Positions 246 through 19,577 of a stretch of 52,572 nucleotides of DNA are shown one piece after another. Source of the DNA: Nanobdellota archaeon (GTDB taxonomy: Archaea > Nanobdellota > Nanobdellia > Woesearchaeales > JAGLXL01); contig JBHPDN010000005.1 of NCBI GenBank assembly GCA_042577865.1, positions 1 to 52,572 of the forward strand, in the 5' to 3' direction. The stretch's first letter is position 1. The number at the start of each line of letters is the position of its first letter. Under the pieces are notes generated by a model that saw only the letters and a list, made by a program, of their open reading frames with translations, had not been told where the DNA came from and searched no databases. The position numbers and the translations under genes are program-made.

Positions 246-2519
246 ATGGTGGTTAAAGAAAGCAAATGTTTTGCCTATGAAATAGTCCGAGAAGGCGAAG
301 AAAAAGTTCTGAAGATTAATTGTGAAGAGTGTACTTTCACCCCATCTATAGAAGATAATAACATTGCCATGGGCAAGACAGTTGACATCCTGCTGGAAGT
401 CAGCGGAGTAACTAGGATTATCCTTTCCCAAAAGAGTGATTATGAGTATGATTTTTATCAAACTCAGATATTGAATGAAATTGCACAAGTGCATAAACGA
501 GTAAGCGCCGATGAAAGATTAAATTATTCTTCTTTAGTGACAGGAACAGGGTGTGAGAGATTCTTACGCGCAGGTTATGCTTCACTGCAATATATTTTAT
601 TTACAGTGTTTAAAAGTGATCCGGTAACAGCTTATGTTGAGCTACGCAGGCTATTGAGAAAAGAAAAAATAAAATTAGAGAATGTGATTGACGGGGCAGA
701 AATAAAATGCCAGGAATACTTTATTTCTATGATTGAGTATGTTTTAGATATTTGGGATAAGACTCGAATGATAAATTTGACCAGACCTTTTTTAGCGGGC
801 TTTCAGGTCGGAGACAGAAACATCTACAAAAGAGTGTTTAATCCTACAACTCGACCTGATTTTATGTTTGCCAAACTAATGGCAACTTACCCTACAGACG
901 GCGAAGTTCTAGACAGTTATTCAGTAGGCAATACTGAAATTACTATTTTTGGTTTTCCTGATGAAATTAAAACACTTTACCACATGGTACCTCCTGAATT
1001 TAAATTTCCTGAGGAAAAATATGAGATTTTAGATACGGCAAGGAATATTATGGCTGAACACAAGCCAACAAAAGAGGAATTTGTTGACCCGGCCAGGATG
1101 AGAGAAGTTTTTTTCAACGTGGGCAAGGATTTGATAAATGATTTGTTGAGATACAGAAAAATTAAATTAAAAGAAAGTGAAGTTGATGAATTGGCTCAGG
1201 TTTTGTTAAGATATACAGTTGGTTTTGGTTTGATGGAAGTTCTACTTTCTGACCCAAAGGTCCAGGATGCCAATGCCAACTCTCCGATGGGCAAGCTGCC
1301 GATCTTCCTGGTTCACCAGGATTTTGATGATTGTACCACTAATGTTATCCCAACAGTGCATGAAGCAGAAAGCTGGGCAACCAAATTAAGAATGATTTCT
1401 GGCCGACCTTTAGATGAAGCCAATCCAGTTTTAGACACTGAATTAAAAGTGCCAGGAATAACATCAAGAGTGGCCGCAGTGTCAGCACCGTTAAATCCCA
1501 GCGGACTGGCCTTTTCTTTTAGAAGGCACAGGGACAAGCCATGGACCTTGCCTTTGTTTATGAAGGCGAAGATGATTGATGATGTTGCAGCAGGATTATT
1601 GAGTTTTTTAATTGACGGAACAAGAACACTGCTGATTGCAGGAACAAGAAGTTCAGGAAAGACCTCGTTGTTGGGTTCTTGTTTAATTGAAATAATGAGA
1701 AGATACCGAGTTGTAACGATTGAAGATACATTAGAACTACCAGTGCCAGCTTTAAGAGAACTTGAGTTCAATGTCCAGTCACTTAAGGTAGCGAGTGCCT
1801 TGGCAGGCAAAGAAACGTCTGAGGTGAGTGCCTCACGAGGTATTAGAACGACCTTGCGTTTAGGAGACTCTGCCCTGATTATTGGGGAAGTAAGAAGCGA
1901 TGAAGCAATTGCTCTTTATGAAGCAATGAGAATCGGAGCAGCAGCCAATGTGGTGGCAGGAACAATTCACGGTGCTTCACCATATGGAGTATTTGACAGG
2001 GTAGTCAATGACATTGGCGTGCCAAAAACATCATTTAAGGCAACAGATATAATTGTAGTAGCCAACCCAATCAGGACAGCGTCTGGTTTGAAAAAACAAA
2101 GAAGAGTTCTACAAATTACTGAAGTAAGAAAAGACTGGCAGGACGATCCAATAAGAGAGAGGGGGTTTGTTGATTTAATGAAGTATGACCCCACAACCGA
2201 CAAACTGGAAGTAACAGATGCTTTGGCTAACGGAGATTCTGAAATTTTGAAAGATATTGCTGGCAATATCAAAGATTTTGCAGGTAATTGGGAAGCGGTT
2301 TGGGATAATATTATGTTAAGGGCTAAGGTGAAAAGAGCTGTGGTGGATATTTCAGATGAAACAAAGAGACCAGAATTGCTGGAAGCATCATTTGTGGTTT
2401 TGGCTAATGATATGTTTCACAAGATTGTGGATAAGGTAAGAACTGAGGTGGGGATGGACTCCAAGAGAATATTCTTTGAATTTAATGAATGGTTAAAACG
2501 AGAGGTTAAAAAGAAATAA
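246..2519 (+). CDS. Type II/IV secretion (TadA/FlaI/VirB11-family) pilus assembly ATPase
   Basis: Walker A AGTRSSGKT, Asp box TIEDTLEL, Walker B LIIGEVR, His box GTIHG; long N-terminal extension with CEEC. Confidence 0.93.
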   Translation: MVVKESKCFAYEIVREGEEKVLKINCEECTFTPSIEDNNIAMGKTVDILLEVSGVTRIILSQKSDYEYDFYQTQILNEIAQVHKRVSADERLNYSSLVTGTGCERFLRAGYASLQYILFTVFKSDPVTAYVELRRLLRKEKIKLENVIDGAEIKCQEYFISMIEYVLDIWDKTRMINLTRPFLAGFQVGDRNIYKRVFNPTTRPDFMFAKLMATYPTDGEVLDSYSVGNTEITIFGFPDEIKTLYHMVPPEFKFPEEKYEILDTARNIMAEHKPTKEEFVDPARMREVFFNVGKDLINDLLRYRKIKLKESEVDELAQVLLRYTVGFGLMEVLLSDPKVQDANANSPMGKLPIFLVHQDFDDCTTNVIPTVHEAESWATKLRMISGRPLDEANPVLDTELKVPGITSRVAAVSAPLNPSGLAFSFRRHRDKPWTLPLFMKAKMIDDVAAGLLSFLIDGTRTLLIAGTRSSGKTSLLGSCLIEIMRRYRVVTIEDTLELPVPALRELEFNVQSLKVASALAGKETSEVSASRGIRTTLRLGDSALIIGEVRSDEAIALYEAMRIGAAANVVAGTIHGASPYGVFDRVVNDIGVPKTSFKATDIIVVANPIRTASGLKKQRRVLQITEVRKDWQDDPIRERGFVDLMKYDPTTDKLEVTDALANGDSEILKDIAGNIKDFAGNWEAVWDNIMLRAKVKRAVVDISDETKRPELLEASFVVLANDMFHKIVDKVRTEVGMDSKRIFFEFNEWLKREVKKK

Positions 2520-4705
2520 TGGACAAGGAAATGGAAAAATTATTGGCCAAGTACAAAGAGAGGCTGAAAGAAGAGTTGGGAGGAGTCAAGGATAGAAGAG
2601 GACAACCTCAAGTGGTTTCCAGAGAGTACAAGGAGTTTAAAAAATCTTTTTTAACCAAACCAATGGGCTGGTATGAAAAGGGATGTAAAGTTGCCGGAAA
2701 AATATTGAGAATTAAACCTAGTCCAAAAAAGGCAGCGCTGTTCAAAAGAAATGTTGAAATCTGCCATTTGGAGATTACGCCTACTGGAGCAATGTCGTTT
2801 GCTTTTCTGTTTCCTTTATTAGTGATGGTGGTTGGTGCTTTGCTTTCATTTGCCTTATTCCAATCATTGTTTTTTGTTTTTTCTTTTGTAATTATTGGAT
2901 TGATATTGATTGTACTTTTCCAAAAACTGCCTTCTTTTTTAGCTAACAGCTGGCGGATGAAAGCTTCCAACCAAATGGTTCAATGTATTTTTTATGTTGT
3001 CACTTATATGAGGCATACTTCTAACTTAGAGAGAGCGATTGAATTTGCCTCTGACCACTTAGCACCGCCACTTTCTTTGGATTTAAGAAAGGTTTTATGG
3101 GATGTGGAAACACACAGATATGGAACAATCAAGGACTCTTTGGACGATTACCTGGCTACTTGGAAAGATTGGAACAAGGAATTTATTGAAGCATTCCATC
3201 TGATTGAATCTTCTCTTTTTGAATCGTCTGAAGGCAGACGATTAGATATGTTAGACAAATCCCTAAGTGTGATTTTGACTGAAACTTATGAAAAAATGCT
3301 TCACTATGCCCATGATTTGAAATCACCAATTACTATGCTGCACATGATGGGAGTAATCCTGCCAATTTTAGGTTTAGTTATTTTGCCTTTAGTAGTGAGT
3401 TTTATGAGCAGTGATGATTTATCAGCTGGTTTTTTAGTAACAGTCATGGCTTTTCTTTATAATATATTAATTCCAGTGGGTGTTTTCTTTTTGGGGAAGG
3501 TTATTTTGTCCAAAAGACCAACGGGTTACGGTGAATCGGATATATCTGAGGAAAACCCAGAGCTAAAGAAGTACAAGTATATTCTGTTAAAGTTTGGAAA
3601 GAAAGAAATAAAAATAAACCCTTTGTTTGTGGCTTTGTTAGTTTTTGGCATCTTATTTTTTATTGGAATAAGTCCGGTAATAATGCATATTTTGGACCCT
3701 AATTTTGATGTTCCGTTTGATGAAGAAGGTCGCTTTTCTTTATTGGGATATGTCTGTCCAGGAGGCAGTTTAACATGTGATTTGAGCGAAAAAATAGGGC
3801 CTTTTGGAATTGGTGCTTCACTTTTATCGTTAGTTTTAACTCTGAGTTTTGGAGTGGGGTTAGGGATTTATTATTCTTTAAGAAGCAAGAATGTAATTAA
3901 AATCAGAGCAAGGACTAAAAAGTTAGAAGATGAGTTTGCTTCTTCATTATTTCAACTGGGAAACAGGTTGGGTGATGGCCTGCCAGCAGAGATTGCGTTC
4001 GGCAAGGTCTCTGAGGTGATGCAGGGAACAACATCAGGTGGTTTTTATTCGTTAGTGAGCAGAAATATTTCCAAGTTAGGAATGAGTGTCAAAGATGCTA
4101 TTTTTAGTGTTGAAGTAGGAGCTTTGGTTTATTTTCCATCAAAAGTAATTGAAAGTTCAATGAAGGTTTTAGTAGAGAGTGTTAAGAAAGGTCCTAAGAT
4201 TGCAGCTCAGGCCCTGGTTTCAATGTCAAGATACATCAAAGAGATTCACAGAGTCAATGAAAGATTAAAGGATTTACTAGCAGATATTATCTCTTCAATG
4301 AAATCCCAGGTTAAATTCTTAACACCAGCAATTGCTGGTATTGTAGTGGGAATTACTTCTATGATCACCACTATTTTGACTAGGTTGGGAGGACAAATCT
4401 CCAGGATTACAGAAGAAGGTGGGTCATCAAGTTTGAGTGGGGTAAGTGGTATTGTTAATCTGTTTGGTGACGGAGTGCCAACTTATTATTTCCAAATTGT
4501 AGTGGGGCTTTATGTAGTACAGATAATCTATATTTTGACTGTCCTGAGCAATGGAATTGAGAATGGATCAGACAAATTAAATGAAAGATATTCTTTAGGG
4601 AAAAATTTGCTTAAGGGAACAATACTTTATTGTTTGATTGCTTTTGCAGTGATGATGATGTTCAATCTGATTGCAGGACAAGTAATGATGAATTCATTTA
4701 GTTAA
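2519..4705 (+). CDS. Type II secretion system F / TadBC (FlaJ-like) membrane platform protein
   Basis: Multiple TM segments alternating with two cytoplasmic T2SSF-like domains; start overlaps the ATPase stop (TAATG). Confidence 0.85.
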   Translation: MDKEMEKLLAKYKERLKEELGGVKDRRGQPQVVSREYKEFKKSFLTKPMGWYEKGCKVAGKILRIKPSPKKAALFKRNVEICHLEITPTGAMSFAFLFPLLVMVVGALLSFALFQSLFFVFSFVIIGLILIVLFQKLPSFLANSWRMKASNQMVQCIFYVVTYMRHTSNLERAIEFASDHLAPPLSLDLRKVLWDVETHRYGTIKDSLDDYLATWKDWNKEFIEAFHLIESSLFESSEGRRLDMLDKSLSVILTETYEKMLHYAHDLKSPITMLHMMGVILPILGLVILPLVVSFMSSDDLSAGFLVTVMAFLYNILIPVGVFFLGKVILSKRPTGYGESDISEENPELKKYKYILLKFGKKEIKINPLFVALLVFGILFFIGISPVIMHILDPNFDVPFDEEGRFSLLGYVCPGGSLTCDLSEKIGPFGIGASLLSLVLTLSFGVGLGIYYSLRSKNVIKIRARTKKLEDEFASSLFQLGNRLGDGLPAEIAFGKVSEVMQGTTSGGFYSLVSRNISKLGMSVKDAIFSVEVGALVYFPSKVIESSMKVLVESVKKGPKIAAQALVSMSRYIKEIHRVNERLKDLLADIISSMKSQVKFLTPAIAGIVVGITSMITTILTRLGGQISRITEEGGSSSLSGVSGIVNLFGDGVPTYYFQIVVGLYVVQIIYILTVLSNGIENGSDKLNERYSLGKNLLKGTILYCLIAFAVMMMFNLIAGQVMMNSFS

Positions 4706-4708
4706 GAA

Positions 4709-6397
4709 TTATTTCTTAAGATTTTTAAGCTGTTCCTGATAGTATTTCAGCTGTTCTTTGATGTTGGTTGGTTTTTTTGAACTGGTAAACTGTTGTTGAG
4801 GGAAAGCTTGGTTGAGATATTTGTTGACAGTGTTCTTTGGCCAGCCTTTTTCAACAAGTGCTTTTTTGATGTCTTCTTTGGAGAAGCCATCTAATTTAGA
4901 GTTATTGATGAATTCAGTAAGAATCTGAACTTTTTTCTGATTTTGTTTTACTTGAGTAGTTTCTTTTACTTGTTTGGTCTTGGTTGTTTGTTTGTATTGG
5001 TGGATGCCTGTTTTCAGGTATTTCTGATAAGTATAAAATGATGAAGCGATAAGGATAACGGCTAACAAGGAAAAGATAATAATCAGTTCAGCAGTAGTGA
5101 CGATTTCACTAGGAATAGGCATCCTGATTTCTCCGGTAAAGACACATTGGTTTTCCTGACAAATGAAAGTCCTGCCGCAATCATTATCAACATAACATTC
5201 GATGCCATAAGGAGCACAGACTCCATTGAGGCAGTTTTCACTCATACAATCATTATCTTGGTGGCAGTTCTTGCCAAGAGGGCACTGGGCGCATGTTTCC
5301 CCACCACAATCAACATCTGATTCGTCCTGGTTTTGGATACTGTCATCACATTGAGGAAGGTAGTCACAAGTCTGGATTTCTTCTGGCTTTTCTTCAGTGA
5401 TTATAATCGCTCCTTTTTCCTCACAACGTTCACTGTCATAACAAATTCTGGTTTGAGTGTTGTTGAGCTGGCAGTTACCCCAAGGACTGCATTCCCAATT
5501 TGGCTGACAAGCACTTCTTCCTCCACCTCCACCCCCTCTTGATGGTTGAGGTGCAAGACAGGCCGGATGAGAAGCACAGTCTGTGTCTTCACAATCAGTG
5601 AAACCATTGAGATTATCATCTATGAGATTAGTACAATCTTCCAGAGCGTCTAAGTTGTAGGAGAAAGTGACGTTGAAACTGTTGACAACAAATGAAAAAT
5701 CACCCCCAGGGTAAGGGATGGTTACATTCTGGCCTGGTGTAACAATGGTGGTGTTGATGAGGCCAGAGCCATTGTAAATACCTAGAACCATGTAAGGTAA
5801 GGAAGTTGTAATATTATTGCCCTGGTCATCAAGAACATCATAAACTGAATAAACTAAGTTGCCGCCGACTTGTTCATAGACTGTGGTGTAGTTGCCACTA
5901 AGGAAACCAGTAGTTTGAGTTAAAGGATAATAAGTTGGTGAAGAGTTAAAGAAAGGGGTGGAATCTTTGGCAATAGTAACAATGCCAGGATAATAGGCAG
6001 AGAAAAGATTAGTGTCTAAGTCAATGAGAGCACAACCTGAACCATTGATGTCTCCACTAGTAATTTGGGCCGGAAGAACTGATAAATCAACTTCTGTAGT
6101 CTGGACACGATAGACAAGTTTGATGTATTGGTTGAGCAGATCTACAGCAGCATTGTCTGAACAGATCTCAACAAACATATTATCATTTTCTAAAGAGAAG
6201 TCGGTGTAAGTTGAAGTGTTGTCATCGTAAACTAAAGTGGCGGTAGAGCCATTAGGCCAAACTAAGCGTTGAGATGTGATGGCTCCTGCTACAGCAAAAC
6301 CAGTGATGTCTCCATATTGTGCAAAAACAGCAAAGACTGCTAAAGCTATTAAAATTCCGATGATAATTGTTTTTTGTTGTTTTTCTAACTGAACCAT
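4709..6397 (-). CDS. Membrane-anchored surface protein 'C': signal anchor + ITGFAVAG, domain Y, Cys-rich TSP1-like/DCGG stalk, TM, cytoplasmic GWP domain
   Basis: Hydrophobic N-terminus; poly-Gly then CQPNWECSPWGNC..QTRIC and QNQDESDVDCGG; TM LIIIFSLLAVILIASSFY; tail EFINNSKLDGFSKEDIKKALVEKGWP. Confidence 0.85.
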   Translation of the reverse strand: MVQLEKQQKTIIIGILIALAVFAVFAQYGDITGFAVAGAITSQRLVWPNGSTATLVYDDNTSTYTDFSLENDNMFVEICSDNAAVDLLNQYIKLVYRVQTTEVDLSVLPAQITSGDINGSGCALIDLDTNLFSAYYPGIVTIAKDSTPFFNSSPTYYPLTQTTGFLSGNYTTVYEQVGGNLVYSVYDVLDDQGNNITTSLPYMVLGIYNGSGLINTTIVTPGQNVTIPYPGGDFSFVVNSFNVTFSYNLDALEDCTNLIDDNLNGFTDCEDTDCASHPACLAPQPSRGGGGGGRSACQPNWECSPWGNCQLNNTQTRICYDSERCEEKGAIIITEEKPEEIQTCDYLPQCDDSIQNQDESDVDCGGETCAQCPLGKNCHQDNDCMSENCLNGVCAPYGIECYVDNDCGRTFICQENQCVFTGEIRMPIPSEIVTTAELIIIFSLLAVILIASSFYTYQKYLKTGIHQYKQTTKTKQVKETTQVKQNQKKVQILTEFINNSKLDGFSKEDIKKALVEKGWPKNTVNKYLNQAFPQQQFTSSKKPTNIKEQLKYYQEQLKNLKK

Positions 6398-8136
6398 AGA
6401 CTTGCAGTACTCCTAATTTGGTGGATGAAGTTCAAAATAACTTCAACGTAAGTGTTTTGGTAATGTGTTGATAATGAATATCTCTCAGTAGCATTTGGCT
6501 GGACAGCAGTTTGACTGGTCAAAGTGAAATTGAACTCCCCTACTTTTTGGTTGTTGGTGAAGAGTTGGAGTTCTGTTCCAGCTGCGTTAAAGATTTCAAA
6601 GTAAAGGGAGTAGTTGCCAACGTGGTCGTCAATATTAGTGTAAGCATAGGATGAAGTGTAGAGTTTGTTGCCGGTCGGGATAAGGGTTAAGTCAACCATG
6701 CCGTTGTCGTCTGTGAGTAATTCGGCAGTGGAGAGGGATTTGACTCCTCTTTGATTGCCGCTAACTGTGTAAGTTTGTGTTGGTGCTAACAAACTGAGAC
6801 CATTTTGTTCTGTTAACATGATTGTTGTGTTGGCAGAAGGGTTGCCGTTGGAGTTGTTAATTTGGATAGTAACATTGTATGGTCTGCCAGGATATGGAAA
6901 AGTATCATTTTGGATACCATCAATCCAAACATAAGGCAAGTAGACAAGTTCGATAGAGAATGAACCAGGATCGTCGTCATTGCCATTATTACAATCTGCA
7001 ATACCTGCAGCTGCATCCAAGGCTGTGGCGTTAACTGTTTTAGCGCCATTAGACAAACCAGTAGTATTGTAAAGCACCCAAGCAGTCTTGTGAGAACCTC
7101 CAGCTGTCAGTCCTCCGGTAACAAGGTAATTTCCAAGGAAAACATTATTGGTTTGATCGTAAAATGAAACATTGAAACTTGAGGTGATGTCAACATTACC
7201 ATCATTTTCCACTTGAGCAGAGACATTAACTATAGGTCCGGCTGGAGTAACTGAAGGAACTACCAGGACGTTATCTAGGTTGACATTAGGGCCGATACAA
7301 AGACTAGTTCCTAAGCCATTCACAACCATGTATCTAGTATCAGTAGCTGATTCTGTAGGTGAAGGCACGCCAGAGTAGAGTTCAATTCCTGAACTGATTT
7401 GCGAGGTGGTGTTGACAATAACACCATCATGACATACTTGGCCGTAAGTGTCATTACAGACAGCAACAACAATTGGTCTTTGTGAGTGGACTCCAAGAGT
7501 TACGTGAGTTAGTGCTCTTGAAAAACTATTTCCACTAACATCTATAAAAGTAACTTGAGGATTGGTGCCAAAAGTGATGTTTTTAGTTGTTTGGCTGTAA
7601 GTTCCAGAGACTGAATAAGAACCACGCAGCCAACTACCTGTATTCATAAAAACATAACTAGGAGCGGAAAGGTCTTGGTTAGTATCATAGGCAGTCCAAG
7701 GTCTGCCTGGGAAAGCTGCATAGTATACTGTTGGTGTTTTGGAACCAAGATAAGACCCGGAAATAAACAAAGGTGATGCCTGAGTCCAATAACAAGTTCC
7801 TCCATTAGGGGAGCCAGTGGAAGCTAAGGCAGTAGTGTATGTAGGATCAGATTTGTAAGTGATAGGAACAAAAATCATAGTGCCACTTACATTAGCACCA
7901 TAACCTCCAGAGACATATTTGTTGAGACCTGCTCCACAAATTTCTATACCTACATCAGGGTTACCACTAGTGTCTGCATAATGGACACCAAATGCACTAA
8001 CTGTTCCTGTGTAGGAAACATACCGGGTGGTACCAGATAAATTAATGAGCTGAGAAGTGACTTGGGCTTGAGCAGAGACAGCAAAAAGAGTGCAAATTAT
8101 TATTGATAAAAGGATTAACCAGATTTTTTTGTTCAT
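6385..8136 (-). CDS. Secreted protein 'B': domain Y, CARDB/Ig-like domain, C-terminal domain X
   Basis: Signal peptide MNKKIWLILLSIIICTLFAVSAQA; CARDB-like VNVSAQVENDGNVDI..FNVSFY. ATG 8136 is preferred over GTG 8145 because GAGGTG lies 6 nt upstream of it. Confidence 0.8.
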   Translation of the reverse strand: MNKKIWLILLSIIICTLFAVSAQAQVTSQLINLSGTTRYVSYTGTVSAFGVHYADTSGNPDVGIEICGAGLNKYVSGGYGANVSGTMIFVPITYKSDPTYTTALASTGSPNGGTCYWTQASPLFISGSYLGSKTPTVYYAAFPGRPWTAYDTNQDLSAPSYVFMNTGSWLRGSYSVSGTYSQTTKNITFGTNPQVTFIDVSGNSFSRALTHVTLGVHSQRPIVVAVCNDTYGQVCHDGVIVNTTSQISSGIELYSGVPSPTESATDTRYMVVNGLGTSLCIGPNVNLDNVLVVPSVTPAGPIVNVSAQVENDGNVDITSSFNVSFYDQTNNVFLGNYLVTGGLTAGGSHKTAWVLYNTTGLSNGAKTVNATALDAAAGIADCNNGNDDDPGSFSIELVYLPYVWIDGIQNDTFPYPGRPYNVTIQINNSNGNPSANTTIMLTEQNGLSLLAPTQTYTVSGNQRGVKSLSTAELLTDDNGMVDLTLIPTGNKLYTSSYAYTNIDDHVGNYSLYFEIFNAAGTELQLFTNNQKVGEFNFTLTSQTAVQPNATERYSLSTHYQNTYVEVILNFIHQIRSTASLWFS

Positions 8137-8146
8137 TTTTTTCACC

Positions 8147-10837
8147 TCAATTTAGAGCATAATATAAGTTTTGGATAACGAAATAGGCATTGCTGATAGC
8201 TTGTTTAAGATCATCATTTTCGTAACTGACACCGGATCGCGGTTCAAGATTTTCATTGATTGACATGGTGATATTAGCGACAGCATCATAAGTACTATTG
8301 TAGATAAGCAGCTCAACCTGAGAGCTTGCTGGCGAGTAAGATGTTGGTGTAAGGAAAAACTCCTGGCTAGTCGGAGTATATCTGTTAAACAAAGTATGGT
8401 TTTTAGAACCAGTATATGGAGATTTGTAAATTGGGTTAATCATAAGCAATCCTTCAAGTTCTTTTGGTTCTACATAGCCTGAAATGATCTGGTCAGTTGA
8501 ATTTTTGAGAGTAACATTGATAAGATTAACAGCACCTGTTTGGAATTTATCATCTGTGGTTGATGAAGATAAGGTGTAGGTGCCGTTTTCATAAACTGTG
8601 AAATTAAAAATATTGGCTTGTGGAGGACTATTAGCCCAGATGTACAAGGAATTGACGACATAAATCATGGAATTAACACCTATCTTAGTGTCATCTGCGA
8701 TATCCTGATCACTAAACGATTTTTTCTCCTGTGGAATAGCAGAATAAGAGATGACAGAGAGGTTGAGCTGATCAACAATGTTGTAACTATTGTCTAATTT
8801 AGCAACATAGATAGAATAATTATCTGAATTATATCGAGTAGGAGCAACAACAAAGGTGATGTTGCCATTGCTATCTGTTTCACCTATGGTCAAGCTTCTA
8901 GTGAGAGAACCGCTGAGTTTGAGAGGGAAGAAAATGACATTGGCATTTTCCTCAAAGATACCAATTTTAGTGTCGGGTGTGGAAACAACATCAACCAAAT
9001 AAGGCAAGGCGGTTTTGGAGAAGTTGTCTGATTCAGTTCCGTCAACATAGACTGTGAGTTCAGTGGTGCTTAAATCACAGCAGATGGAGGTGTCATAAGC
9101 ATGTGAGGCATTGCAGCTGGCAGCGTGCATATTGGTGGTGTTGTCAGTGAGATTCATTGGAACTGTAAGGAGACAAGTTTCAGTTGGCAAAGAGCAGTTG
9201 CCGTAATAATCTTCATAATAGGAACAAGTAATTGAACCAGTGTCAGTGGAGATAGAAGCGTTGACAGTGTAATATTCTGTACTTGAGAGAGTGAGGTTAG
9301 AGCCGTTGTTATAATGGATAAAGGCGCCATTAGGGATTTCGACGTGGGAATTGGTGGTTTGATAGAGATTAAGGAAATTAGAGCTGGAAGAATCACCAGT
9401 ATCATTAGTGCCGAGGGTGACGCCTGCTGTAGTAGGAGCACAGCAAAGAGAATAGTCAAAACTGGATTCGTTAGCAAGTTCGACGTGGGAATTGTTGCAG
9501 GAATAAATTCCCATGATTTTAGTGTAGTTAAAGGTGCTTTGAATATATGAACAATCACCTTCAATGACAGTGCAGTTAAGATTAGACTGGTTGCCTATAA
9601 AACCAGAACATATTTGTGGTGGGGGAACTAAATATTTGACAGTGTGGTAATCATTATTGATATTACCAGTTAGCAAGATATTATTTGTGGAATCAATAGC
9701 CACGCCTCTGGCTTGAGATGGACTAATTCCAGGACCAAAAGTACTGTTCCAGAGTTCATTGCCGTCTTCATCATATTTGATAGTGTAATAATAATAATTT
9801 CCACTGATGTAACTATAACCTGTGACGATGATGTTGTCGAAGGAGTCTGTAGCTACTGCTTTGGCTTGTTCACCGAGAGATGTAAAATCGATGGTTTTGT
9901 TCCAGAGGTGGTTTCCATTTGAGTCGTATTTGATGGTGAAATAATCTGTATTGCCTCCTAGATTGCTGTAGCCCGTTACAATCACATTATTTGAAGAATC
10001 TGCGGCTACACCGTAAGCAACATCAGCAGCCCCGCCATCATAGGTTTTATTCCAGAGGTGGTTGCCATTTGAATCATACTTGATGGTGAAATAGTCATTA
10101 TCCCCTCCAAGATTGCTGTTACCGGTGACGATGACATTATTGGAGAAATCTGTTGTTACTGCACGGATTTGGTCATTATTACTACCATTGTAGGTTTTGT
10201 TCCAGAGTGCAGTGCCATTTTCGTCGTATTTGATGGTAAGGAAGTCATAATCTCCCACCCCAACATACTCGCTGCCTGCTACAATTATGTTATCTAAAGA
10301 ATCTATGGCCACTCCATAAGCACTATCACTACCAACACCACCATCATAGGTTTTGTTCCAGAGATGGTTGCCGCTGGAGTCGTATTTGATGGTGAAACGA
10401 TCATAATCTCCTGCTAAATAACTTTCGCCTGTTACGATGACGTTGTTTGAAGAATCTGTGGCTACGCCATAAGCAGTGTCACCACCAGCACTATCATAGG
10501 TTTTGTTCCAGAGGTGGTTGCCATTTGAGTCGTATTTGATGGTGAAATAAGCAGTGGTTCCTAAATTGCTAGAGCCGGTGACGATGACATTGTTCGAGGT
10601 ATCTGTAGCTACTGCCTGGGCTTCATCAATAGCTCCACCATTGTAAGTTTTATTCCACTGTTCAGTTATATTGTCAGCACCAGCAATGGCTCCAGCTGGA
10701 GCAGCAGCAACAGCTGCCCCAGTGGTTAAATCAAAAGGTGCTTCTGGCTGCCAAGAGTACAAGAAAAAACTAGCAAATGAGATTAAGAGTGTAGCAGCTA
10801 GGAAAATGACGGATGTTTTGATTAAATCATTTTTCAT
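8147..10837 (-). CDS. Secreted protein 'A': 7-bladed beta-propeller (SBBP-like repeats), Cys-rich domain, two copies of domain X
   Basis: N-terminal hydrophobic segment + TTGAAV; seven ~50-aa repeats WNKTYDGG..A.GVATDSSNNVIVTG.S....DYFTIKYDSNG; NSHVE..Y..CC motifs. Confidence 0.88.
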   Translation of the reverse strand: MKNDLIKTSVIFLAATLLISFASFFLYSWQPEAPFDLTTGAAVAAAPAGAIAGADNITEQWNKTYNGGAIDEAQAVATDTSNNVIVTGSSNLGTTAYFTIKYDSNGNHLWNKTYDSAGGDTAYGVATDSSNNVIVTGESYLAGDYDRFTIKYDSSGNHLWNKTYDGGVGSDSAYGVAIDSLDNIIVAGSEYVGVGDYDFLTIKYDENGTALWNKTYNGSNNDQIRAVTTDFSNNVIVTGNSNLGGDNDYFTIKYDSNGNHLWNKTYDGGAADVAYGVAADSSNNVIVTGYSNLGGNTDYFTIKYDSNGNHLWNKTIDFTSLGEQAKAVATDSFDNIIVTGYSYISGNYYYYTIKYDEDGNELWNSTFGPGISPSQARGVAIDSTNNILLTGNINNDYHTVKYLVPPPQICSGFIGNQSNLNCTVIEGDCSYIQSTFNYTKIMGIYSCNNSHVELANESSFDYSLCCAPTTAGVTLGTNDTGDSSSSNFLNLYQTTNSHVEIPNGAFIHYNNGSNLTLSSTEYYTVNASISTDTGSITCSYYEDYYGNCSLPTETCLLTVPMNLTDNTTNMHAASCNASHAYDTSICCDLSTTELTVYVDGTESDNFSKTALPYLVDVVSTPDTKIGIFEENANVIFFPLKLSGSLTRSLTIGETDSNGNITFVVAPTRYNSDNYSIYVAKLDNSYNIVDQLNLSVISYSAIPQEKKSFSDQDIADDTKIGVNSMIYVVNSLYIWANSPPQANIFNFTVYENGTYTLSSSTTDDKFQTGAVNLINVTLKNSTDQIISGYVEPKELEGLLMINPIYKSPYTGSKNHTLFNRYTPTSQEFFLTPTSYSPASSQVELLIYNSTYDAVANITMSINENLEPRSGVSYENDDLKQAISNAYFVIQNLYYALN
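9630..10665 (-). repeat. Intragenic tandem repeat, 7 x ~150 bp, encoding propeller blades
   Basis: Near-identical blocks such as ttccagaggtggttgccatttgagtcgtatttgatggtgaaata recur near 9900, 10050, 10355 and 10505. Confidence 0.85.
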
Positions 10838-11004
10838 TTGGCTTCCTCAAATTCCATATACCACATTTCTTTTTTAGTGTCGTATTTGAAAACAACATTG
10901 TATTTCTTATTCTGAAGATCAAGACTGAAGAGAAGAGGTTTGGGCATAGTCACTTCAAAACTACTACCGCGACTGTAAATTTTTCTTTTTAATTCAGCTG
11001 GCAT
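10834..11004 (-). CDS. Small AbrB/MazE-like (swapped-hairpin) DNA-binding protein, 56 aa; absent from the ORF track
   Basis: Manual translation MPAELKRKIYSRGSSFEVTMPKPLLFSLDLQNKKYNVVFKYDTKKKMWYMEFEEAK; clear paralog of 19380..19577; ATGA overlap with gene A. The fold is inferred from the RKI..RG.S..VT.P pattern. Confidence 0.8.
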   Translation of the reverse strand: MPAELKRKIYSRGSSFEVTMPKPLLFSLDLQNKKYNVVFKYDTKKEMWYMEFEEAK

Positions 11005-11229: not shown

Positions 11230-11397
11230 TGGGGACGCCGGGACTGTCAAGCTAACGCTCTCGGTCGTTATCAACCTTGTCGCTAACTATTTGAACCCGG
11301 GACACCTAGATGTCTGCAAAATCATTGGTTTAAACAAACCTCATCACATCAAGGATGTACTTCAGTCTAGTGCTCTCCCAGGCTGAGCTACGTCCCC
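11230..11397 (-). tRNA. tRNA-Phe(GAA) with two introns: 48 nt at 37/38 (11312-11359) and 46 nt at 59/60 (11244-11289); CCA not encoded
   Basis: Reverse complement: GGGGACG TA GCTC AGCCTGGGA GAGC A CTAGA CTGAAG[intron]A TCTAG GTGTC CCGGG TTCAAA[intron]T CCCGG CGTCCCC A. All four stems pair and the spliced length is 74 nt. Confidence 0.93.
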
Positions 11398-11422
11398 AGT
11401 AGAAATGAGAAATTAAAAGTTG

Positions 11423-12851: not shown

Positions 12852-13223
12852 TTATATGGTTTCTTCTTCTGGATTTAGATCTTCGGGAAGCTCTTCTTCA
12901 GGAGCAGCTGGTTCAGGAGCTGGTTGTGCCTCTCCTTTTTCTACAATTTCTATCTTGCCGAATTTACCAGTGGAAAGTTGTTTTTCCCCTTGGTACTCAC
13001 CAACATAACCATTAGCAATGTGGATTTTATCTCCAACATTGACCTGATCGACCTGCTCATTCCATAGAGTGAGTTTAATCTGGCCGGAATCATCTTTAGC
13101 AGTAGCGTTACATACACGGCCTGTTTTGCCGAACTTTTCAAATTCTCTAACGTCGCCTTTTTCAACTATTTCAAGAACAAGATCAACGCTGCCTTGTTTA
13201 GGCTGTAAGTCTTTTATTTCCAT
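12852..13223 (-). CDS. Single-OB-fold ssDNA-binding protein (RPA/SSB-like) with acidic Pro-rich tail
   Basis: G.V.NATAKDDSGQIKLTLWNEQ..NGYVGEYQGEKQLSTGKFG; acidic tail. Confidence 0.9.
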   Translation of the reverse strand: MEIKDLQPKQGSVDLVLEIVEKGDVREFEKFGKTGRVCNATAKDDSGQIKLTLWNEQVDQVNVGDKIHIANGYVGEYQGEKQLSTGKFGKIEIVEKGEAQPAPEPAAPEEELPEDLNPEEETI

Positions 13224-16200
13224 TTTCTTAAACCCCCTAGTTTTTGTTCTAGATTTTTCAATTCTTGCTTGAAAACCCGGAGTTTTTTAAACTTTTGTAT
13301 TTGTGAATTTAGATATTGGTCAACAATATCAATTGGCCAACCTTGGGAGATGAGCATCTTTTCCAGTGGCCTTCTGGAATAACCTTTGTTGAGAGAAGCA
13401 TCAATAAAGTCCTTAAGTTCTCTGGCCCGGTCGATCTCTACAGAGAAAGATGGTGCTTTTGATTTAGGTCTAATGATTCTTTGCATAGTCTTCCAGACAC
13501 CAATATGAGAGACCTCTTCGGTAATTTGAGTTTGTTGTTTCTCTAGAAGCATTTTTTCCTGTGTTTTCTTGGCTTCTTTGGTTACTTTTCTGTGTTCTTT
13601 AGCTGCCTGGTCTACATAATTGTCAACAATTTTCTTTGGCCAGCCTTTATGAACTAAGGCATCCTTGATGTGCTTGGCAGTAAAGCCGTGAAGGAATGAA
13701 TTTTTAATGAATTCTGACAAGAGCTGACTGTAACCTTCAGCAGATTTTTTCCTTTGTTTTTTGATGATTTGTTTTTTCTTAGTCTGACGAGCGGTTGAAT
13801 GAACATAACTCTTGAAGGCAACATAAGTTGCTAAGACGGCACCAATGATTAACAAGAAAATGATGGTGGAAACAACATTGGCTTGGAGGAAAGGAACAGC
13901 TTCGGCTATTTTTTTAGTTAAGCCTAGACTTGATTCGTAAGCCTGGTTAAAAGCAACTTTAGCGATGCTTAAAGCATCAACTTGGATTTGTTTCATAACA
14001 TCAAGATATTCTGAAACATAATCACCAACAACCGGGATGGTATTTTTAGCAAGTTGATAAACATGCTCCCAAAGTGTAACTTCAATAGTGAGAGGCAGTC
14101 TTTCTAAATCAATCAAAGTGCAAACATTACTTTGGCAATAGTGATCTTCTGGGCAGTCGCTATTGTCCAGGCAATCTGCTTCAGCTGGAAGACAAGTATT
14201 TTTGAAACAATGACTGGTTTGGCAATCACTGTCTTGCTGACAAGTTTTGTCTTGGTCGCATGGACTGCAGACAGTTCCACCACAATCTACATCTGTTTCA
14301 TCTTGGTTTTGGGAATTGTCGCTGCAAGTTGAAATGTAAGTACAAGTTTGGTTTTCAGCAGGTTTAGTACCATAAATGAGGCGGACATTCTTTTCTTCAC
14401 ATCTACTGAGATCAGTACAAGTTCTATATTGCATACCATCTGGCTGACAAGCTTCCCAATCAGTACATTCCCATCTCTGCTGGCAAGCACTACTTCCTCC
14501 ACCTCCTCCTCCACTAGTGGAAGGAGGGAGTGGTAAGGGTGGATTGTAAATTGTATCTAAATCTATTGGATTTGAAACAGAGCAAGTATAAGTGGTACCT
14601 TGGTAAACAATGGTTCCGGAATAACAAAGGTCATTGGTGATGTTGGTATTGTTGAGGACAGCATCAATAACGGTTGAATTGACGATGGTAACGTTATTCA
14701 GAGTGCTGCCAGTGACATCTGAATTGTTAATGGTTGAGTTGGTGATAGTGGAGTCATCAACTGTGGAATCGGTTATTTCAGAATCTTCAATAGTGGAGTC
14801 GTCTATATCGCTATTGGTGATGTTAGAATCAGTGACATTTGAATTAGTAACAGTCGAGTCGGTGACGTTGCTATTGGTGATGTTAGAACCTTGTTCTATA
14901 GTTGAATTGTCTATAGTGGAGTCATCAATTACTGAATCATCAATAGTGCTGTCAGTAACATTGGAGTCAGTGACATTTGAATCATAAACATCACTATCAA
15001 AAATGTTGGAGTTGTCAATATCTGAGTTGTTGATGTCACTGTTGTTGATGGTGGAAAAATCAACATATGAGTCTGAGATGTTGGAATCAAAAATATGTGA
15101 ACCATTGACAATAGCAGTACTGGTAATGTTGCTGTTTCTGACCTCTGAGTCAGAGACATTGGAATCATCTACATAGGAGTCTGAGATGTTGGAGTTTGTC
15201 CAATTGTTATTGGAGCCGGTAACATTAGTAATATTAGATGGATCAACATACCAACCTTCTCCATTAGAGTTAATAATAATACTATCATAACATCGGGAGT
15301 GGTTTAATTCTGAGTTAGTGATATCACAATTAGATGAAGTGACATTGAGGAAAGTTGAAATGTTGATGTTTGAGACATTGTCGATAGTTGAATCTATTTC
15401 TATGGAATCAAAAATGTTACTGTTGAGGTTGATGGAATTTATTTTGGTGGCATTGGTTAAGTTTGAGGTGGTGTAGACCTCTACATAATAAGTTTCAAAT
15501 TGGGTTTCTAAATTATTTGAAGTGTCAACAGCTCGACTGTAAATTGGATATTCTCCATCTGATGATGGTGTCCAAGAGTAATTCCAGTTAGAGGTTCCAG
15601 TAGTGTTATAGAAAGTGCCGTTGATACTAACTTCAATGTAAGATAGACCAACATCATCGCTGGCAGTACCCGAGATATTGATTGGGAAGTTGTTTTGGCC
15701 GATGTCTGAATTGTTGGCTGGGGAATTGATAAGTGATATTGGTGGGACGGTATCTATATCGGCTTTTAAAGTAGTGAAGTGTGTTGTGTTGAAAATGTAA
15801 ACCAGAGTGGAATTGTTGTAGGAAATTTCGTTACAGAACGTGCATGGTTCAAACTGAGTATCATCGTTCAGATCAACATAAGGTTCTGGGTCTGTTAAGT
15901 TGATGTTGTACAAAGTGATATTGGCGCTGACATTCAAACCATTTTGTGAAGAATTAACATAAACAGAATTATTGTTTATTTGAATGTCTGAACTAGAAGA
16001 GTCGAAAAGGCTGGCTGTGTTGCTCGTGGTAGCATTTTCATTAACTTGTGCAGTAAATGAAAGTTTTCCATTAGTTGTATCTTCCAGTGAGAGTAAATCT
16101 GCATTAATAAGACTATATCTGCCAATCACCAAATCAACAATAGAACTGTTGAAAGTGTTATCATAGTAAATATCACGGTAGTAATTTGCCGGGTATGATC

Positions 16201-19200
16201 CGGAAAAAGTGCAGTCCTTGACTATGGTGTGATTAACTCCATAATATATTATAGCACTCACTGTTTGGATTGGGTTGGATCTCTTAGTAAATGCATTGTC
16301 TTCAATTGTAATGCCTGATGAAGACTGGGCAGAGATACAATACTTACCACAATCCACAGTGTTGTTTGTTATCCAAATATCAACCACACTACTGGACATT
16401 CTAACAGATGCCCAGGTATTACTAGAACCCCAAAAAGTATTATTTCTAACAGTGACATTGGAAGTGTAACCCAGATATAATTCTGAGGAACCGCTGCCTT
16501 GGAAAGTATTGTTTTCAATCAAATGGCCACTCATCTGGCTGACAGTAAGGCCAGCATTGCTATTGCTAGAGAATGTGTTGTTTCTGATAGTTTGTCCTGT
16601 ACCAGAATAAGTGGTTCCAGGCCAAAAGTAAGCCCCATTAAAACTATTCCTAAATTGATTGTTTAGAAGCACACCATTCCTGAGTTTGAATAAGTAAGCA
16701 GCATAATAAAAGGTAGTTATGTCACAATTTTGAATAGTAATGTTTTCCTGGGTTGGAACATAAATACCATAACCACTGCTGGCTGCAGTGCCATTGCCAG
16801 TGATAGTGTAACCAGCGCAATCAAAAATAACATTGTCAGCCAAGATGTTAAAGCAAGTGCCATTAGAAGAAATGTTTTGAGTAAGAGTGTAAGTTCCTGG
16901 TGCAGAAATGTTATTACAGGAAGACAATGATGCACCTGCTTGGTAAGTTGTGAAATGGTTAACAAGATAATTTAATTCATTAGTTCCATTATCAAAACTG
17001 ACATTAGTACAAACACTTCCTGGACATTGGACAAAAAGACCATCGTCTTCTGGGTCCCAAAGAGGTTGGTTTTGACTTGACTGCAAACTGTAATGAGTTA
17101 AGTTAGCAGAGATATTGAAGCCTGGTTGTGATGAAGAATTGACAAAGATTGAATTGTTGTCTATTCTAATATCTGAGGTTGGTGAACCAAATAGATTACT
17201 GCCGCTTTCGGCGATATTGGCTAAAAATTCAAGCTGACCAAAAGCAGTATTTTCTAAAGAGAGGTTATTGGCTGAAACAAACTCGTACGAACCCAACACA
17301 GAATCAACAATATCCACCTCAGAAGAGTGGATTCTTATGTCGGCTGTGCCGCTTGAGGAAGCACTACAGTTTGCTAAAAGATTGTTAGTAGTAGAAAGTT
17401 CAAATTGAAAGCCATAGAGATCATTTGAAGTGGCAGTGTTGTTGAGGAGTGTGTTGTTATCACTGTAGTCATCGATTAAGAATCCCCTAACTTTATTTGA
17501 ATTAGCAATGTTATTGATGATAGTGTTGTTAGTAGCTATTAGATAAATTCCTGTTGCGGTGTTGTTGTTGGCGGTGTTGTTGATAATTCTATAATCTGAG
17601 CCACTATAGATATGGATACCATGCTTGTTGTTGTTGGCGGTGTTGTTTATTATTTGAACGTTTTTAGCACTGTGTGAATAAACTCCCCCAAAAGGCAAAA
17701 CTAGTCCGTTGTTGTAAAATTGATTATCTCTAATAACATGGTCTGAACCAGCAGCGAGATAAATACCATTTTGAAAACTAGTAAAGATACAATTTTTGAT
17801 AGTGATGTTATCCATACCACCAGTATATATAGCAAATCCGCTTCCGTTTCCAGTAAGAGCATAACCTTGACAATCAATAGTTATATTATCTGATAGAATA
17901 CTAAAACAAGTACTGTTATCAGAAAGGTTGGCAGTGATGTTTTGATTAAGCGAGTAGGCTCCTGGCGTGGTGATATTAACGCAGGAAGACAAAGAAGAGG
18001 TATTGAATGTAGTGTTAGTTGTACCATAAGTGGTAAAGTGACTAACATTGACTACTAAAGTACCGCTAGAGTAACTAATCTTATTACAAGTAGAGTTAGG
18101 ACATTCTATGTAAGTGCCATTATCTCCATAATCAGCGTAGATCTTGCTGTCGTTAAGAGAACTAAAGTTCTGATTGTAAAATGTCAGAGTGGCATTTTTG
18201 TTAAAAGAAGCCATAGCTGATACATTGACAAAGATTTGGTCAGGATCAAATTGGAAGAGATCTGGGAATCTAACGGAACCACCAGCATTGGATATGTTAG
18301 GGTAGAGTAGTTCAGTAACATTTCTTTCTCCAATAAGGATATTATAAGAATTACCACTAGCACTTGAAAGTGCAAAAGGACAATTGGAATTTTCAATATC
18401 ATAAAATGAAATATTTATATTGCCACTAGTACGGATGTGGTTAGAATGACTGGTGTTACAAAAATTGTTTTCGAAGAGTGTATTGTTAGTACGAGTAATT
18501 TCATAACCATAAATATTACTGGTTCCATCTTCAGAATTATTAATAAGAGAAACATTTTCTGATAGGCCAACACCAAAACCATAAGAAGTAAGAAGGGTTA
18601 TGTTGTTATTGATTAGTTGAGTATTATGACACCAACCATTAAGCCAGATACCACGAATAGAAGCGTTAATGATAGTGTTGTTTAAGACAGTAGAATCACG
18701 TGTGTAAGACAGGATTATGCCTACTTGGCTCATATTTATAATTTGGTTGTTGGCTATGTAAAGATTAGTGGAGTTATAGGACTGCGAATCAGAAATACCA
18801 GATACATAGCCAGTAATATAATTATTGGTAAAATTACTATAAGTGCTGTTACTGATACTAATAGCAAAGGTGGGGGTGGAAGTACCATTGTGATAGAAAG
18901 TATTATTTTCAGCAAGGATGTTTGAACTAGAAATTAAACTGAGACCTGATCCACCAGATAAATCACTTTTTCCAAAAGTATTATTGATGATGCTGATATT
19001 TGTACCTATCACAGATACACCATAACCCCAATTATCAAATTGACAATTCTTTATAGTAAAATTGTTTCTAGGAGTTGGAGATGCCCCATATGATTTAATT
19101 GCTGTACCGGTGCTGCCAGGACCGGTGATAGTATAACCTTGGCAATCTAAAACAGCATTGTTGCTCATGGTGAAGCAAGTAGAATTGGGAGTGCTTATAT

Positions 19201-19399
19201 TTTGAACAAGAACACTCTGGCCGGAAAGTTGGTAATCACAATGAGTGATATTACCTGTACCTCCTGGGAAGGATTGACCAGCGACAGCAAAACCAGTAAT
19301 GCCTGGTTCTAAATCTACGAAAAGGAATACTCCAATGACTACAATAATGACTGCTGCCAGGACAGCGGCAACTGCTAAATCACCTTTTTTGTTTCTCAT
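13214..19399 (-). CDS. Giant (2061 aa) surface protein 'D': class III-like signal, three parallel beta-helix (NosD/pectin-lyase-like) modules, Ig-like domain, pentapeptide rod, Cys-rich stalk, TM, two cytoplasmic GWP domains
   Basis: MRNKKG/DLAV + hydrophobic segment + ITGFAVAG; three repeats of C..I..PG.Y.L.QNI...TCF.I..DN...DC.GY.ITG followed by I.NN repeats; DTVPP..SP..ISGTASDD Ig-like domain; TM IIFLLIIGAVLATYVAF. Confidence 0.9.
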   Translation of the reverse strand: MRNKKGDLAVAAVLAAVIIVVIGVFLFVDLEPGITGFAVAGQSFPGGTGNITHCDYQLSGQSVLVQNISTPNSTCFTMSNNAVLDCQGYTITGPGSTGTAIKSYGASPTPRNNFTIKNCQFDNWGYGVSVIGTNISIINNTFGKSDLSGGSGLSLISSSNILAENNTFYHNGTSTPTFAISISNSTYSNFTNNYITGYVSGISDSQSYNSTNLYIANNQIINMSQVGIILSYTRDSTVLNNTIINASIRGIWLNGWCHNTQLINNNITLLTSYGFGVGLSENVSLINNSEDGTSNIYGYEITRTNNTLFENNFCNTSHSNHIRTSGNINISFYDIENSNCPFALSSASGNSYNILIGERNVTELLYPNISNAGGSVRFPDLFQFDPDQIFVNVSAMASFNKNATLTFYNQNFSSLNDSKIYADYGDNGTYIECPNSTCNKISYSSGTLVVNVSHFTTYGTTNTTFNTSSLSSCVNITTPGAYSLNQNITANLSDNSTCFSILSDNITIDCQGYALTGNGSGFAIYTGGMDNITIKNCIFTSFQNGIYLAAGSDHVIRDNQFYNNGLVLPFGGVYSHSAKNVQIINNTANNNKHGIHIYSGSDYRIINNTANNNTATGIYLIATNNTIINNIANSNKVRGFLIDDYSDNNTLLNNTATSNDLYGFQFELSTTNNLLANCSASSSGTADIRIHSSEVDIVDSVLGSYEFVSANNLSLENTAFGQLEFLANIAESGSNLFGSPTSDIRIDNNSIFVNSSSQPGFNISANLTHYSLQSSQNQPLWDPEDDGLFVQCPGSVCTNVSFDNGTNELNYLVNHFTTYQAGASLSSCNNISAPGTYTLTQNISSNGTCFNILADNVIFDCAGYTITGNGTAASSGYGIYVPTQENITIQNCDITTFYYAAYLFKLRNGVLLNNQFRNSFNGAYFWPGTTYSGTGQTIRNNTFSSNSNAGLTVSQMSGHLIENNTFQGSGSSELYLGYTSNVTVRNNTFWGSSNTWASVRMSSSVVDIWITNNTVDCGKYCISAQSSSGITIEDNAFTKRSNPIQTVSAIIYYGVNHTIVKDCTFSGSYPANYYRDIYYDNTFNSSIVDLVIGRYSLINADLLSLEDTTNGKLSFTAQVNENATTSNTASLFDSSSSDIQINNNSVYVNSSQNGLNVSANITLYNINLTDPEPYVDLNDDTQFEPCTFCNEISYNNSTLVYIFNTTHFTTLKADIDTVPPISLINSPANNSDIGQNNFPINISGTASDDVGLSYIEVSINGTFYNTTGTSNWNYSWTPSSDGEYPIYSRAVDTSNNLETQFETYYVEVYTTSNLTNATKINSINLNSNIFDSIEIDSTIDNVSNINISTFLNVTSSNCDITNSELNHSRCYDSIIINSNGEGWYVDPSNITNVTGSNNNWTNSNISDSYVDDSNVSDSEVRNSNITSTAIVNGSHIFDSNISDSYVDFSTINNSDINNSDIDNSNIFDSDVYDSNVTDSNVTDSTIDDSVIDDSTIDNSTIEQGSNITNSNVTDSTVTNSNVTDSNITNSDIDDSTIEDSEITDSTVDDSTITNSTINNSDVTGSTLNNVTIVNSTVIDAVLNNTNITNDLCYSGTIVYQGTTYTCSVSNPIDLDTIYNPPLPLPPSTSGGGGGGSSACQQRWECTDWEACQPDGMQYRTCTDLSRCEEKNVRLIYGTKPAENQTCTYISTCSDNSQNQDETDVDCGGTVCSPCDQDKTCQQDSDCQTSHCFKNTCLPAEADCLDNSDCPEDHYCQSNVCTLIDLERLPLTIEVTLWEHVYQLAKNTIPVVGDYVSEYLDVMKQIQVDALSIAKVAFNQAYESSLGLTKKIAEAVPFLQANVVSTIIFLLIIGAVLATYVAFKSYVHSTARQTKKKQIIKKQRKKSAEGYSQLLSEFIKNSFLHGFTAKHIKDALVHKGWPKKIVDNYVDQAAKEHRKVTKEAKKTQEKMLLEKQQTQITEEVSHIGVWKTMQRIIRPKSKAPSFSVEIDRARELKDFIDASLNKGYSRRPLEKMLISQGWPIDIVDQYLNSQIQKFKKLRVFKQELKNLEQKLGGLRKWK
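14630..15455 (-). repeat. Pentapeptide S-x-[IV]-x-[DN] repeat region (15-bp period)
   Basis: SNVTD SNVTD STIDD SVIDD STIDN..., dozens of units within gene D. Confidence 0.85.
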
Positions 19400-19577
19400 T
19401 CTTTTTTAGTTTTTTTAGTTCTTCAAAATCGATGTACCATCGATTATTTTCAGGATCAAATTTGAAAAGAACGTTGTATCTTTTTTTATGAGGATCTAAT
19501 TTAAAGAGAAGTGGGAGTGGTAAAGTTGTTTCATAAGAACTACCGCGAATGTAAAGTTTTCTTTTTATCTCAGTCAA
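19380..19577 (-). CDS. Small AbrB/MazE-like DNA-binding protein, 65 aa (TTG start)
   Basis: KRKLYIRGSSYETTLPLPLLF.LD..K.YNV.FK.D....WY..FEE is shared with 10834..11004; AGAGGG upstream; overlaps the start of gene D. Confidence 0.82.
   Translation of the reverse strand: MTEIKRKLYIRGSSYETTLPLPLLFKLDPHKKRYNVLFKFDPENNRWYIDFEELKKLKKNEKQKR

Follow-up and report, generated by a model that had tools for sequence, protein, structure and literature searches.

The 52,572-nucleotide stretch analysed here (the window; contig JBHPDN010000005.1 of the Nanobdellota archaeon assembly GCA_042577865.1) carries three abutting open reading frames (ORFs) on the minus strand, named A (8147-10837, 896 residues), B (6385-8145, 586 residues from a GTG start) and C (4709-6397, 562 residues). 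Their coordinates are exactly those given in an earlier sequence-only reading of this DNA. We propose, from sequence comparisons, that A, B and C are subunits of a conserved surface assembly in which a terminal plug domain, X, would dock an N-terminal socket domain, Y, giving the order membrane, C, B, A; we put the probability of this reading at about 0.4. In such an assembly C would be the base, a type-I membrane protein with its Y at the outer tip, and B would be a secreted, anchor-free adaptor built as Y, CARDB domain and X. A would be an exchangeable, head-bearing subunit that always ends in two X copies (X-X). The X of B is predicted to dock the Y of C, and the X-X of A the Y of B, with the contact surfaces lying between plug and socket. 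The head of A may bind a host cell or another substrate.

The domain homologies on which the proposal is built are clear. The sequence-only reading had claimed that B and C share their N-terminal domain Y and had proposed a profile comparison as the check. Y occupies residues 28-284 of B (7294-8064, minus strand) and residues 36-250 of C (5648-6292, minus), where it forms two beta-sandwich halves (about 35-168 and 169-247). A direct BLASTP comparison of the two gives an E-value of 0.002 with 24% identity over 209 residues. The profile comparison of the B family (20 sequences) with the C family (8 sequences) gives an hhalign probability of 98.2% (E 3.8e-14, 172 columns), and the Y of B is recovered by a hidden Markov model (HMM) at 4e-52. 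The short motifs by which Y had been recognised are invariant or nearly invariant columns in an alignment of 32 rows from both families. In C numbering these columns are C79, Y96, C122, A134, P137, G138, G168 and N239, among them two cysteines, an A-x-x-P-G motif, the glycine of L-x-G-x-Y and the asparagine of V-V-N.

Domain X is likewise shared by A and B, as had been proposed, and it is present twice in A, a feature that the earlier reading did not mention. Each X consists of a beta-sandwich of about 150 residues followed by a helix. In B it covers residues 398-586 (6388-6954, minus), and its C-terminal helix (565-585) is modelled with low confidence. In A the first copy spans residues 589-736 (8630-9073, minus) and the second residues 739-896 (8150-8623, minus), the latter reaching the C-terminus of the protein. 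Direct BLASTP comparison of A with B gives E 0.001. Against the B family profile, residues 592-738 of A give a probability of 99.5% (E 2.9e-22; HMM independent E-value 6e-38) and residues 739-896 give 97.4% (E 9.2e-12; HMM independent E-value 3e-32). The two segments also match one another at 98.9%; since both match the X of B and each other, A holds X twice. No domain common to A and C is found (best BLASTP E 1.5; hhalign probabilities 0.2 and 1.0), in agreement with the earlier reading. A short motif just past the N-terminal hydrophobic segment is seen by eye in both A and C. Similarity between A and its relatives lies mainly in X-X, the N-terminal parts being different, and similarity between C and its relatives lies mainly in Y, the stalk being different; conservation in A and C thus falls on the shared domains themselves.

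Among the three proteins, a hydrophobic segment away from the N-terminus is found in C only (residues 432-450), where the AlphaFold2 model places a helix at 435-462, and the claim that C bears the sole C-terminal membrane anchor holds. By eye, B has a signal cleavage site of the usual A-x-A type. A later membrane segment is also absent from all 39 B-type representatives described below. The genes are packed tightly: the stop codon of A is 1 base from the GTG of B, or 10 bases from an ATG at 8136, and the start of C runs 13 bases into the end of B. The ATG, preceded by GAGGTG, is the more likely start of B and yields 583 residues, the length of the database copy of B (P0004). With no anchor of its own, a secreted B would drift away from the cell if it did not bind something fixed. 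Because of this, together with the strict co-occurrence and tight spacing of the three genes, a physical assembly is the most economical explanation, and the placement of B as the middle piece, suggested previously, is plausible.

The trio has a fixed architecture. In the window and 28 other loci that we fetched, the order XX / YX / Y is seen in 29 of 29 cases and is complete in 22; in six of the others a contig end truncates the trio, and in one B is divided in two. That locus, L049 (2875-4472, genome G437), has a Y ORF of 316 residues and an X ORF of 216 residues; the division may be genuine or may stem from a frameshift or a sequencing error. In the genome of the window, X is confined to A and B, and Y to B and C. 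An X profile was run against 1.84 billion representative proteins and gave 236 matches at E up to 0.001. Architectures were read for the best 150 of these: 97 end in X-X, 39 are Y...X, 10 have a single X, 2 are Y...X-X and 2 were left unassigned by the models. In this set X lies 0-12 residues from the C-terminus in 97 of 97 X-X proteins and 0-6 residues from it in 39 of 39 Y...X proteins, and the region before X-X ranges from 0 to 4823 residues. The two Y...X-X proteins (P0112, 965 residues, and P0117, 564 residues) carry an N-terminal Y and a C-terminal X-X on one chain. Full-length B is present in 13 of 401 genomes of the class. X is found in the same 13, typically in three copies per genome, with one weak further match, and Y in the same 13, twice in each, with one partial further match. 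At the level of the order, X occurs in 23 of 401 genomes, including G583. In a tree of X domains all 13 B copies fall in one clade (support 97/89), and the two X copies of A are separate in most genomes; the three X lineages are therefore old.

The variable parts lie outside the shared domains. The head of A varies in size between about 200 and about 4,800 residues; where the window has a propeller, beta-helix, PKD, lectin-like or giant multi-domain regions are found elsewhere. Binding-type families (Beta_helix/NosD, PQQ, PKD, Laminin_G_3, MAM, FG-GAP and CARDB) are identified in the heads of 12 of the 13 long X-X proteins scanned. In locus L046 (genome G415) A has 4,040 residues and C, which extends past the end of the stretch analysed, at least 1,904, beside a B of the usual size (581 residues).

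Evidence on which domains may fit each other comes from evolutionary distances. Distance correlations (r) were computed over the 22 complete trios for six segments, namely the two X copies of A, the Y, the middle CARDB region and the X of B, and the Y of C, giving 15 pairs. Two blocks are observed. The first contains both X copies of A and the Y of B (r 0.92-0.94), and the second contains the X of B and the Y of C (r 0.90). Pairs of like domains rank near the bottom of the 15: the X of B correlates with the first and second X of A at 0.73 and 0.80, and the Y of B with the Y of C at 0.72. Only the pairs between the Y of C and the two X copies of A are lower (0.67 and 0.71). In a bootstrap over genomes, the Y of C follows the X of B more closely than it follows the Y of B (difference in r 0.18 [0.06, 0.38]), and the first X of A follows the Y of B more closely than the X of B (0.20 [0.00, 0.45]).

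The same division appears as a mosaic along the operon of the window. Compared with L044, a locus of the same family, BLASTP bit scores are 207 for the Cys-rich head, 16 and 17 for the two X copies of A, 40 for the Y of B, 84 for CARDB, 208 for the X of B, 207 for the Y of C and 164 for the rest of C. Compared with L032, a locus of another family, the corresponding values are 14, 99 and 129, 134, 33, 122, 50 and 14. As the better match switches from one locus to the other and back along the operon, the contiguous cassette formed by the X-X of A and the Y of B apparently differs in origin from both flanks, and it ends at domain borders in two genes. On the sequence evidence, the X-X of A and the Y of B were exchanged together in the window, and the head, CARDB, the X of B and the whole of C stayed near the same-family relative. 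The pattern is also seen in L046 and is less crisp in L042. Phylogenetic trees agree with this division. In the tree of the X of B with the Y of C, the window joins L044 (99/96) and L045 (80/78). In the tree of both X copies of A with the Y of B, L044, L045 and L034 lie beyond a 100/100 branch from the window, and this tree rejects the union of the family (log-likelihood difference 52; approximately unbiased (AU) test, p 0.0003). If the X of B fitted the X of A, or the Y of B that of C, an exchange of this cassette should break the fit. If instead the X-X of A fits the Y of B, and the X of B the Y of C, both fits would survive the exchange, for which reason docking of X on Y is favoured.

Several observations weigh against the proposed assembly. 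The segments that co-vary also lie next to each other on the DNA (the X-X of A lies beside the Y of B, and the X of B beside the Y of C), and any contiguous replacement across the A/B junction, such as a double crossover, would give the same blocks. The excess over the CARDB control is small for the second block (r of the X of B with the Y of C exceeds that with CARDB by 0.08 [0.01, 0.17]), and for the first block it is not significant (r of the Y of B with the first X of A exceeds that with CARDB by 0.05 [-0.01, 0.14]). The genomes are related, which makes all these bootstrap intervals too narrow. The family group for the AU test of the union was chosen after the nearest-neighbour table had been viewed, and L034 and L042 have long branches in the tree of the first block. 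Furthermore, the six-row clade of the second-block tree is not rejected on the other block (AU p 0.40), which speaks against a plain conflict of topology; hence part of the difference between the blocks could be a change of rate and not exchange. A keeps its own N-terminal hydrophobic segment, maybe an anchor, which would alter the geometry. The patchy occurrence of the trio, in 13 of 401 class genomes, makes it a non-core structure. Finally, we infer the physical binding of A, B and C to one another from these comparisons of sequence.

The three proteins could also act alone, as tandem paralogous surface proteins that arose by duplication and domain shuffling, with no stable complex among them and with the mosaic produced by recombination of neighbouring DNA. 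Tandem duplication does yield domain sharing between adjacent genes, all correlations fall roughly with DNA distance, A has its own N-terminal hydrophobic segment and the fold matches are to generic beta-sandwiches only. On this view, however, one would have to account for three different architectures that keep a fixed order and co-occur strictly in all 29 loci across many families, for a B that is anchor-free in 39 of 39 representatives and for an X that is always terminal. The module has also been retained in genomes below 1 Mb (here it takes up 6.1 kb of a genome of 867 kb, 88% complete), and the three X lineages are old, with the X of B in a single clade (97/89). We regard independent action as doubtful, though a serious contender. 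The model of the sequence-only reading keeps the same order, membrane, C, B, A, but has B dock on C by Y-Y pairing and capture A by X-X pairing, as hetero-oligomers of paralogous domains. Both of the homologies that it needs do hold, and paralogous domains from a self-associating ancestor often keep associating. A bundle of three X domains might underlie the fixed copy number of two X for A and a single one for B, and the low confidence of the terminal helix of X in the model of B is as expected for an element that needs a partner. It is the pairing mode that fares badly, given the weak like-with-like covariation (0.72-0.80). Relative to L044, moreover, the X of B is 56% identical but the X copies of A are 21%, and the Y of C is 49% but the Y of B 30%, and therefore each domain would have to tolerate a very different supposed partner. 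Co-folding of A 589-896 with B 398-586 gave run scores of 0.34, 0.00 and 0.00, which is no evidence either way. Altogether like-with-like pairing appears unlikely.

If X does dock Y, B carries both a socket and a plug, and a head-to-tail polymer of B is conceivable for that reason. The result would be a non-pilin archaeal surface fibre with C as its base, B as its shaft and A as a tip adhesin that caps it. The cassette of X-X and Y would then be swapped between lineages to re-fit tips, and Y...X-X proteins such as P0112 and P0117 could be alternative members of the chain. We consider such a fibre improbable. A role as components or anchors of an S-layer, comparable to the two-protein S-layer of Sulfolobales, would agree with the C-terminal membrane stalk of C and the lack of a C-terminal anchor in A and B, and the archaeal S-layer protein 7ptp appears in the fold search with B, among many other beta-sandwich chains. 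It would also agree with the S-layer protein of immunoglobulin-like folds, lacking homology to known ones, that is reported for a cultivated relative (10.1101/2023.10.27.564410). Yet only 13 of 401 class genomes have the system, it is single-copy in each genome, and heads of unrelated folds, with sizes between about 200 and about 4,800 residues, are hard to fit into one lattice; an S-layer function is thus very improbable. The assembly with X docked on Y is our preferred reading.

The AlphaFold2 model of B is confident (predicted local distance difference test score, pLDDT, 86.9) and all-beta; its linker is disordered, and its terminal helix is of low confidence (pLDDT 57-64). In the model of C (pLDDT 76.9 overall), confidence is good for Y, for the membrane helix and for the tail, and poor for part of the Cys-rich stalk. 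For X and Y, no Pfam model scores above its cut-off and no solved relative is found by sequence; solved relatives by sequence exist for the CARDB region only. This region, residues 285-397 of B (6955-7293, minus), is a CARDB-type beta-sandwich by a family-level match to PF07705. Twelve of 20 B family members match (best E 8.9e-18), and the B of the window itself has no match at E 0.01. The B family profile matches the solved CARDB-like chains 2l0d (E 5e-12), 2kl6 and 3idu. X was compared with the macroglobulin domain MG4 (PF17789), for which the B of the window scores 16.2 bits, below the cut-off of 24.7, and 6 of 20 B family members match weakly (best E 4.6e-4). The resemblance of X to MG4 is a likeness of fold class only. 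Foldseek with B lists generic tandem beta-sandwich chains, including macroglobulins, adhesins, integrin legs and 7ptp. Foldseek with C reaches E 9.2e-4 at best, and the wide VIA-align search with C gives a best Z of 7.3 for Y, under the level that the tool takes as meaningful. No family can be named for X or Y from these whole-chain fold searches. A protein atlas search with B 28-284, for which the atlas model is poor, gave no usable feature match and structural rows with template modelling scores below 0.3. Membership of the cohesin and dockerin families was rejected for A, B and C at E up to 1 and for the 20 B family members. Pfam matches to the Sulfolobales-type S-layer families are absent from A, B and C, where the fold searches list generic beta-sandwich chains only. 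Full-text literature searches found no description of this operon or of the X and Y domains, which is not proof that none exists.

The remaining parts of the three proteins are as follows. A begins with a hydrophobic segment (residues 8-26; 10760-10816, minus), from the hydropathy scan a signal peptide or signal anchor. It is followed by a lineage-specific head, a seven-bladed SBBP-type beta-propeller (residues 58-405; 9623-10666, minus). The propeller assignment of the earlier reading is borne out by the match to PF06739 (32.6 bits against a cut-off of 20.5, E 8e-8, two stretches) and by seven W-N motifs at residues 60, 109, 159, 211, 261, 311 and 362, spaced by about 50 residues. It is present in one of the four relatives of A found (P0067). 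A Cys-rich head domain (residues 406-588; 9074-9622, minus), 60% identical to that of L044, connects it to X-X. In C, a Gly-rich linker and Cys-rich stalk (residues 251-430; 5108-5647, minus), variable among C orthologues, leads to the transmembrane helix (residues 432-462 from hydropathy and the model; 5012-5104, minus) and to a helical cytoplasmic tail with a conserved K-G-W-P motif (residues 463-562; 4712-5011, minus). Within the stalk, residues 350-420 hold a short motif, C-D-D ... N-Q-D-E-T-D-V-D-C-G-G, for which there are matches in many unrelated proteins of bacteria, archaea and eukaryotes (P0031-P0066), covering 7-35% of the query. The transmembrane-plus-tail module of C is also found at the C-terminus (13526-14224; E 1.4e-21) of a 2061-residue beta-helix, Big_7 and pentapeptide protein encoded nearby (13214-19399, minus). 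Similar tails occur in other genomes of the class, and this kind of C-terminal anchor seems to be in common use.

Upstream of A lies a small ORF of 56 residues, read from the sequence (10834-11004, minus), whose stop overlaps the start codon of A (ATGA) and with which the operon may begin. Its paralogue at 19425-19574 on the minus strand is 56% identical to it over 50 residues. Both immediately precede the gene of a large surface protein, A in one case and the 2061-residue beta-helix protein in the other. Neither belongs to a Pfam family, and no counterpart upstream of A was found in the 12 other loci searched. On the other side, a T2SSE-family ATPase (757 residues; 246-2519, plus) and a 728-residue membrane protein (2519-4705, plus) converge on C from the opposite strand and stop 3 bases from its end. 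In the first 12 other loci fetched neither has a match; a link of the trio to these secretion ATPase genes was rejected since the neighbours are not conserved. Interpretation as an archaeal type IV pilus or archaellum-like locus was rejected as well, the linkage to secretion ATPase and platform genes not being conserved. The remaining flanking genes are common to subsets of loci only. Among the genes in the vicinity are those of an archaeal-type clamp loader and of an OB-fold (oligonucleotide/oligosaccharide-binding fold) single-strand-binding protein; the orthologues carry the source name 'Nanoarchaeota archaeon', and no phage genes are found beside the trio in the window. At about 11230-11400 (minus), a tRNA-like stretch is seen by eye, with acceptor and start of the D-arm, an anticodon loop reading GAA, a T-arm and a 3' end. 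It seems to be broken by two inserts and may be a multi-intron tRNA gene; ARAGORN and Rfam made no call there.

A comparison with known systems shows both likenesses and differences. In the cellulosome-type cohesin-dockerin display of bacteria, an anchoring scaffoldin, an adaptor scaffoldin and dockerin-bearing cargo are combined. The trio resembles it in having a variable cargo with a conserved, internally duplicated terminal module, and by analogy would have an adaptor with both kinds of module, one subunit fixed to the cell and a defined chain order. It differs in that X is a beta-sandwich of about 150 residues with a helix and not a small calcium-binding module, with no Pfam match to cohesin or dockerin. 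In addition, there is one cargo gene per genome, the cargo resembles binding modules and not enzymes, and docking in the trio is a prediction. The two-protein S-layer of Sulfolobales consists of a membrane stalk and an outer canopy and, like the trio, is encoded by adjacent genes, with a C-terminal membrane helix in one protein and none in the other. Unlike it, the trio has three proteins with shared domains, a patchy distribution and a hypervariable head, and lacks a sequence match in Pfam. Exchange of tail-fibre and adaptor modules in phages is similar in that the cassette spans a gene junction, and the attachment part could stay matched to the receiving partner as the rest keeps the history of its lineage. 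Here, however, the operon is cellular, and the attachment modules were exchanged whereas the Cys-rich head stayed with its lineage. Macroglobulin and CARDB surface proteins share with the trio the CARDB of B, at family level, the weak MG4 matches of X and similar fold matches. They differ from it in X and Y, which have neither a Pfam model above cut-off nor a solved sequence relative, the best Z for Y being 7.3. We class the trio as a variant form of modular surface display with a membrane anchor, in which X and Y represent two domain families not described before.

Small-genome archaea of this type are believed to live in attachment to other cells, by means that are largely unknown. The trio is a candidate attachment module, economical for such a genome with its three genes for a membrane base, an adaptor and a variable head. 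If X and Y are truly a matched docking pair, they would constitute a new protein-protein docking system, and the exchange of X-X and Y, with a gene boundary between them, would illustrate clearly how a whole interface can be transferred in one piece. A search for proteins that end in X-X would then provide a handle on the host-binding proteins of uncultured archaea.

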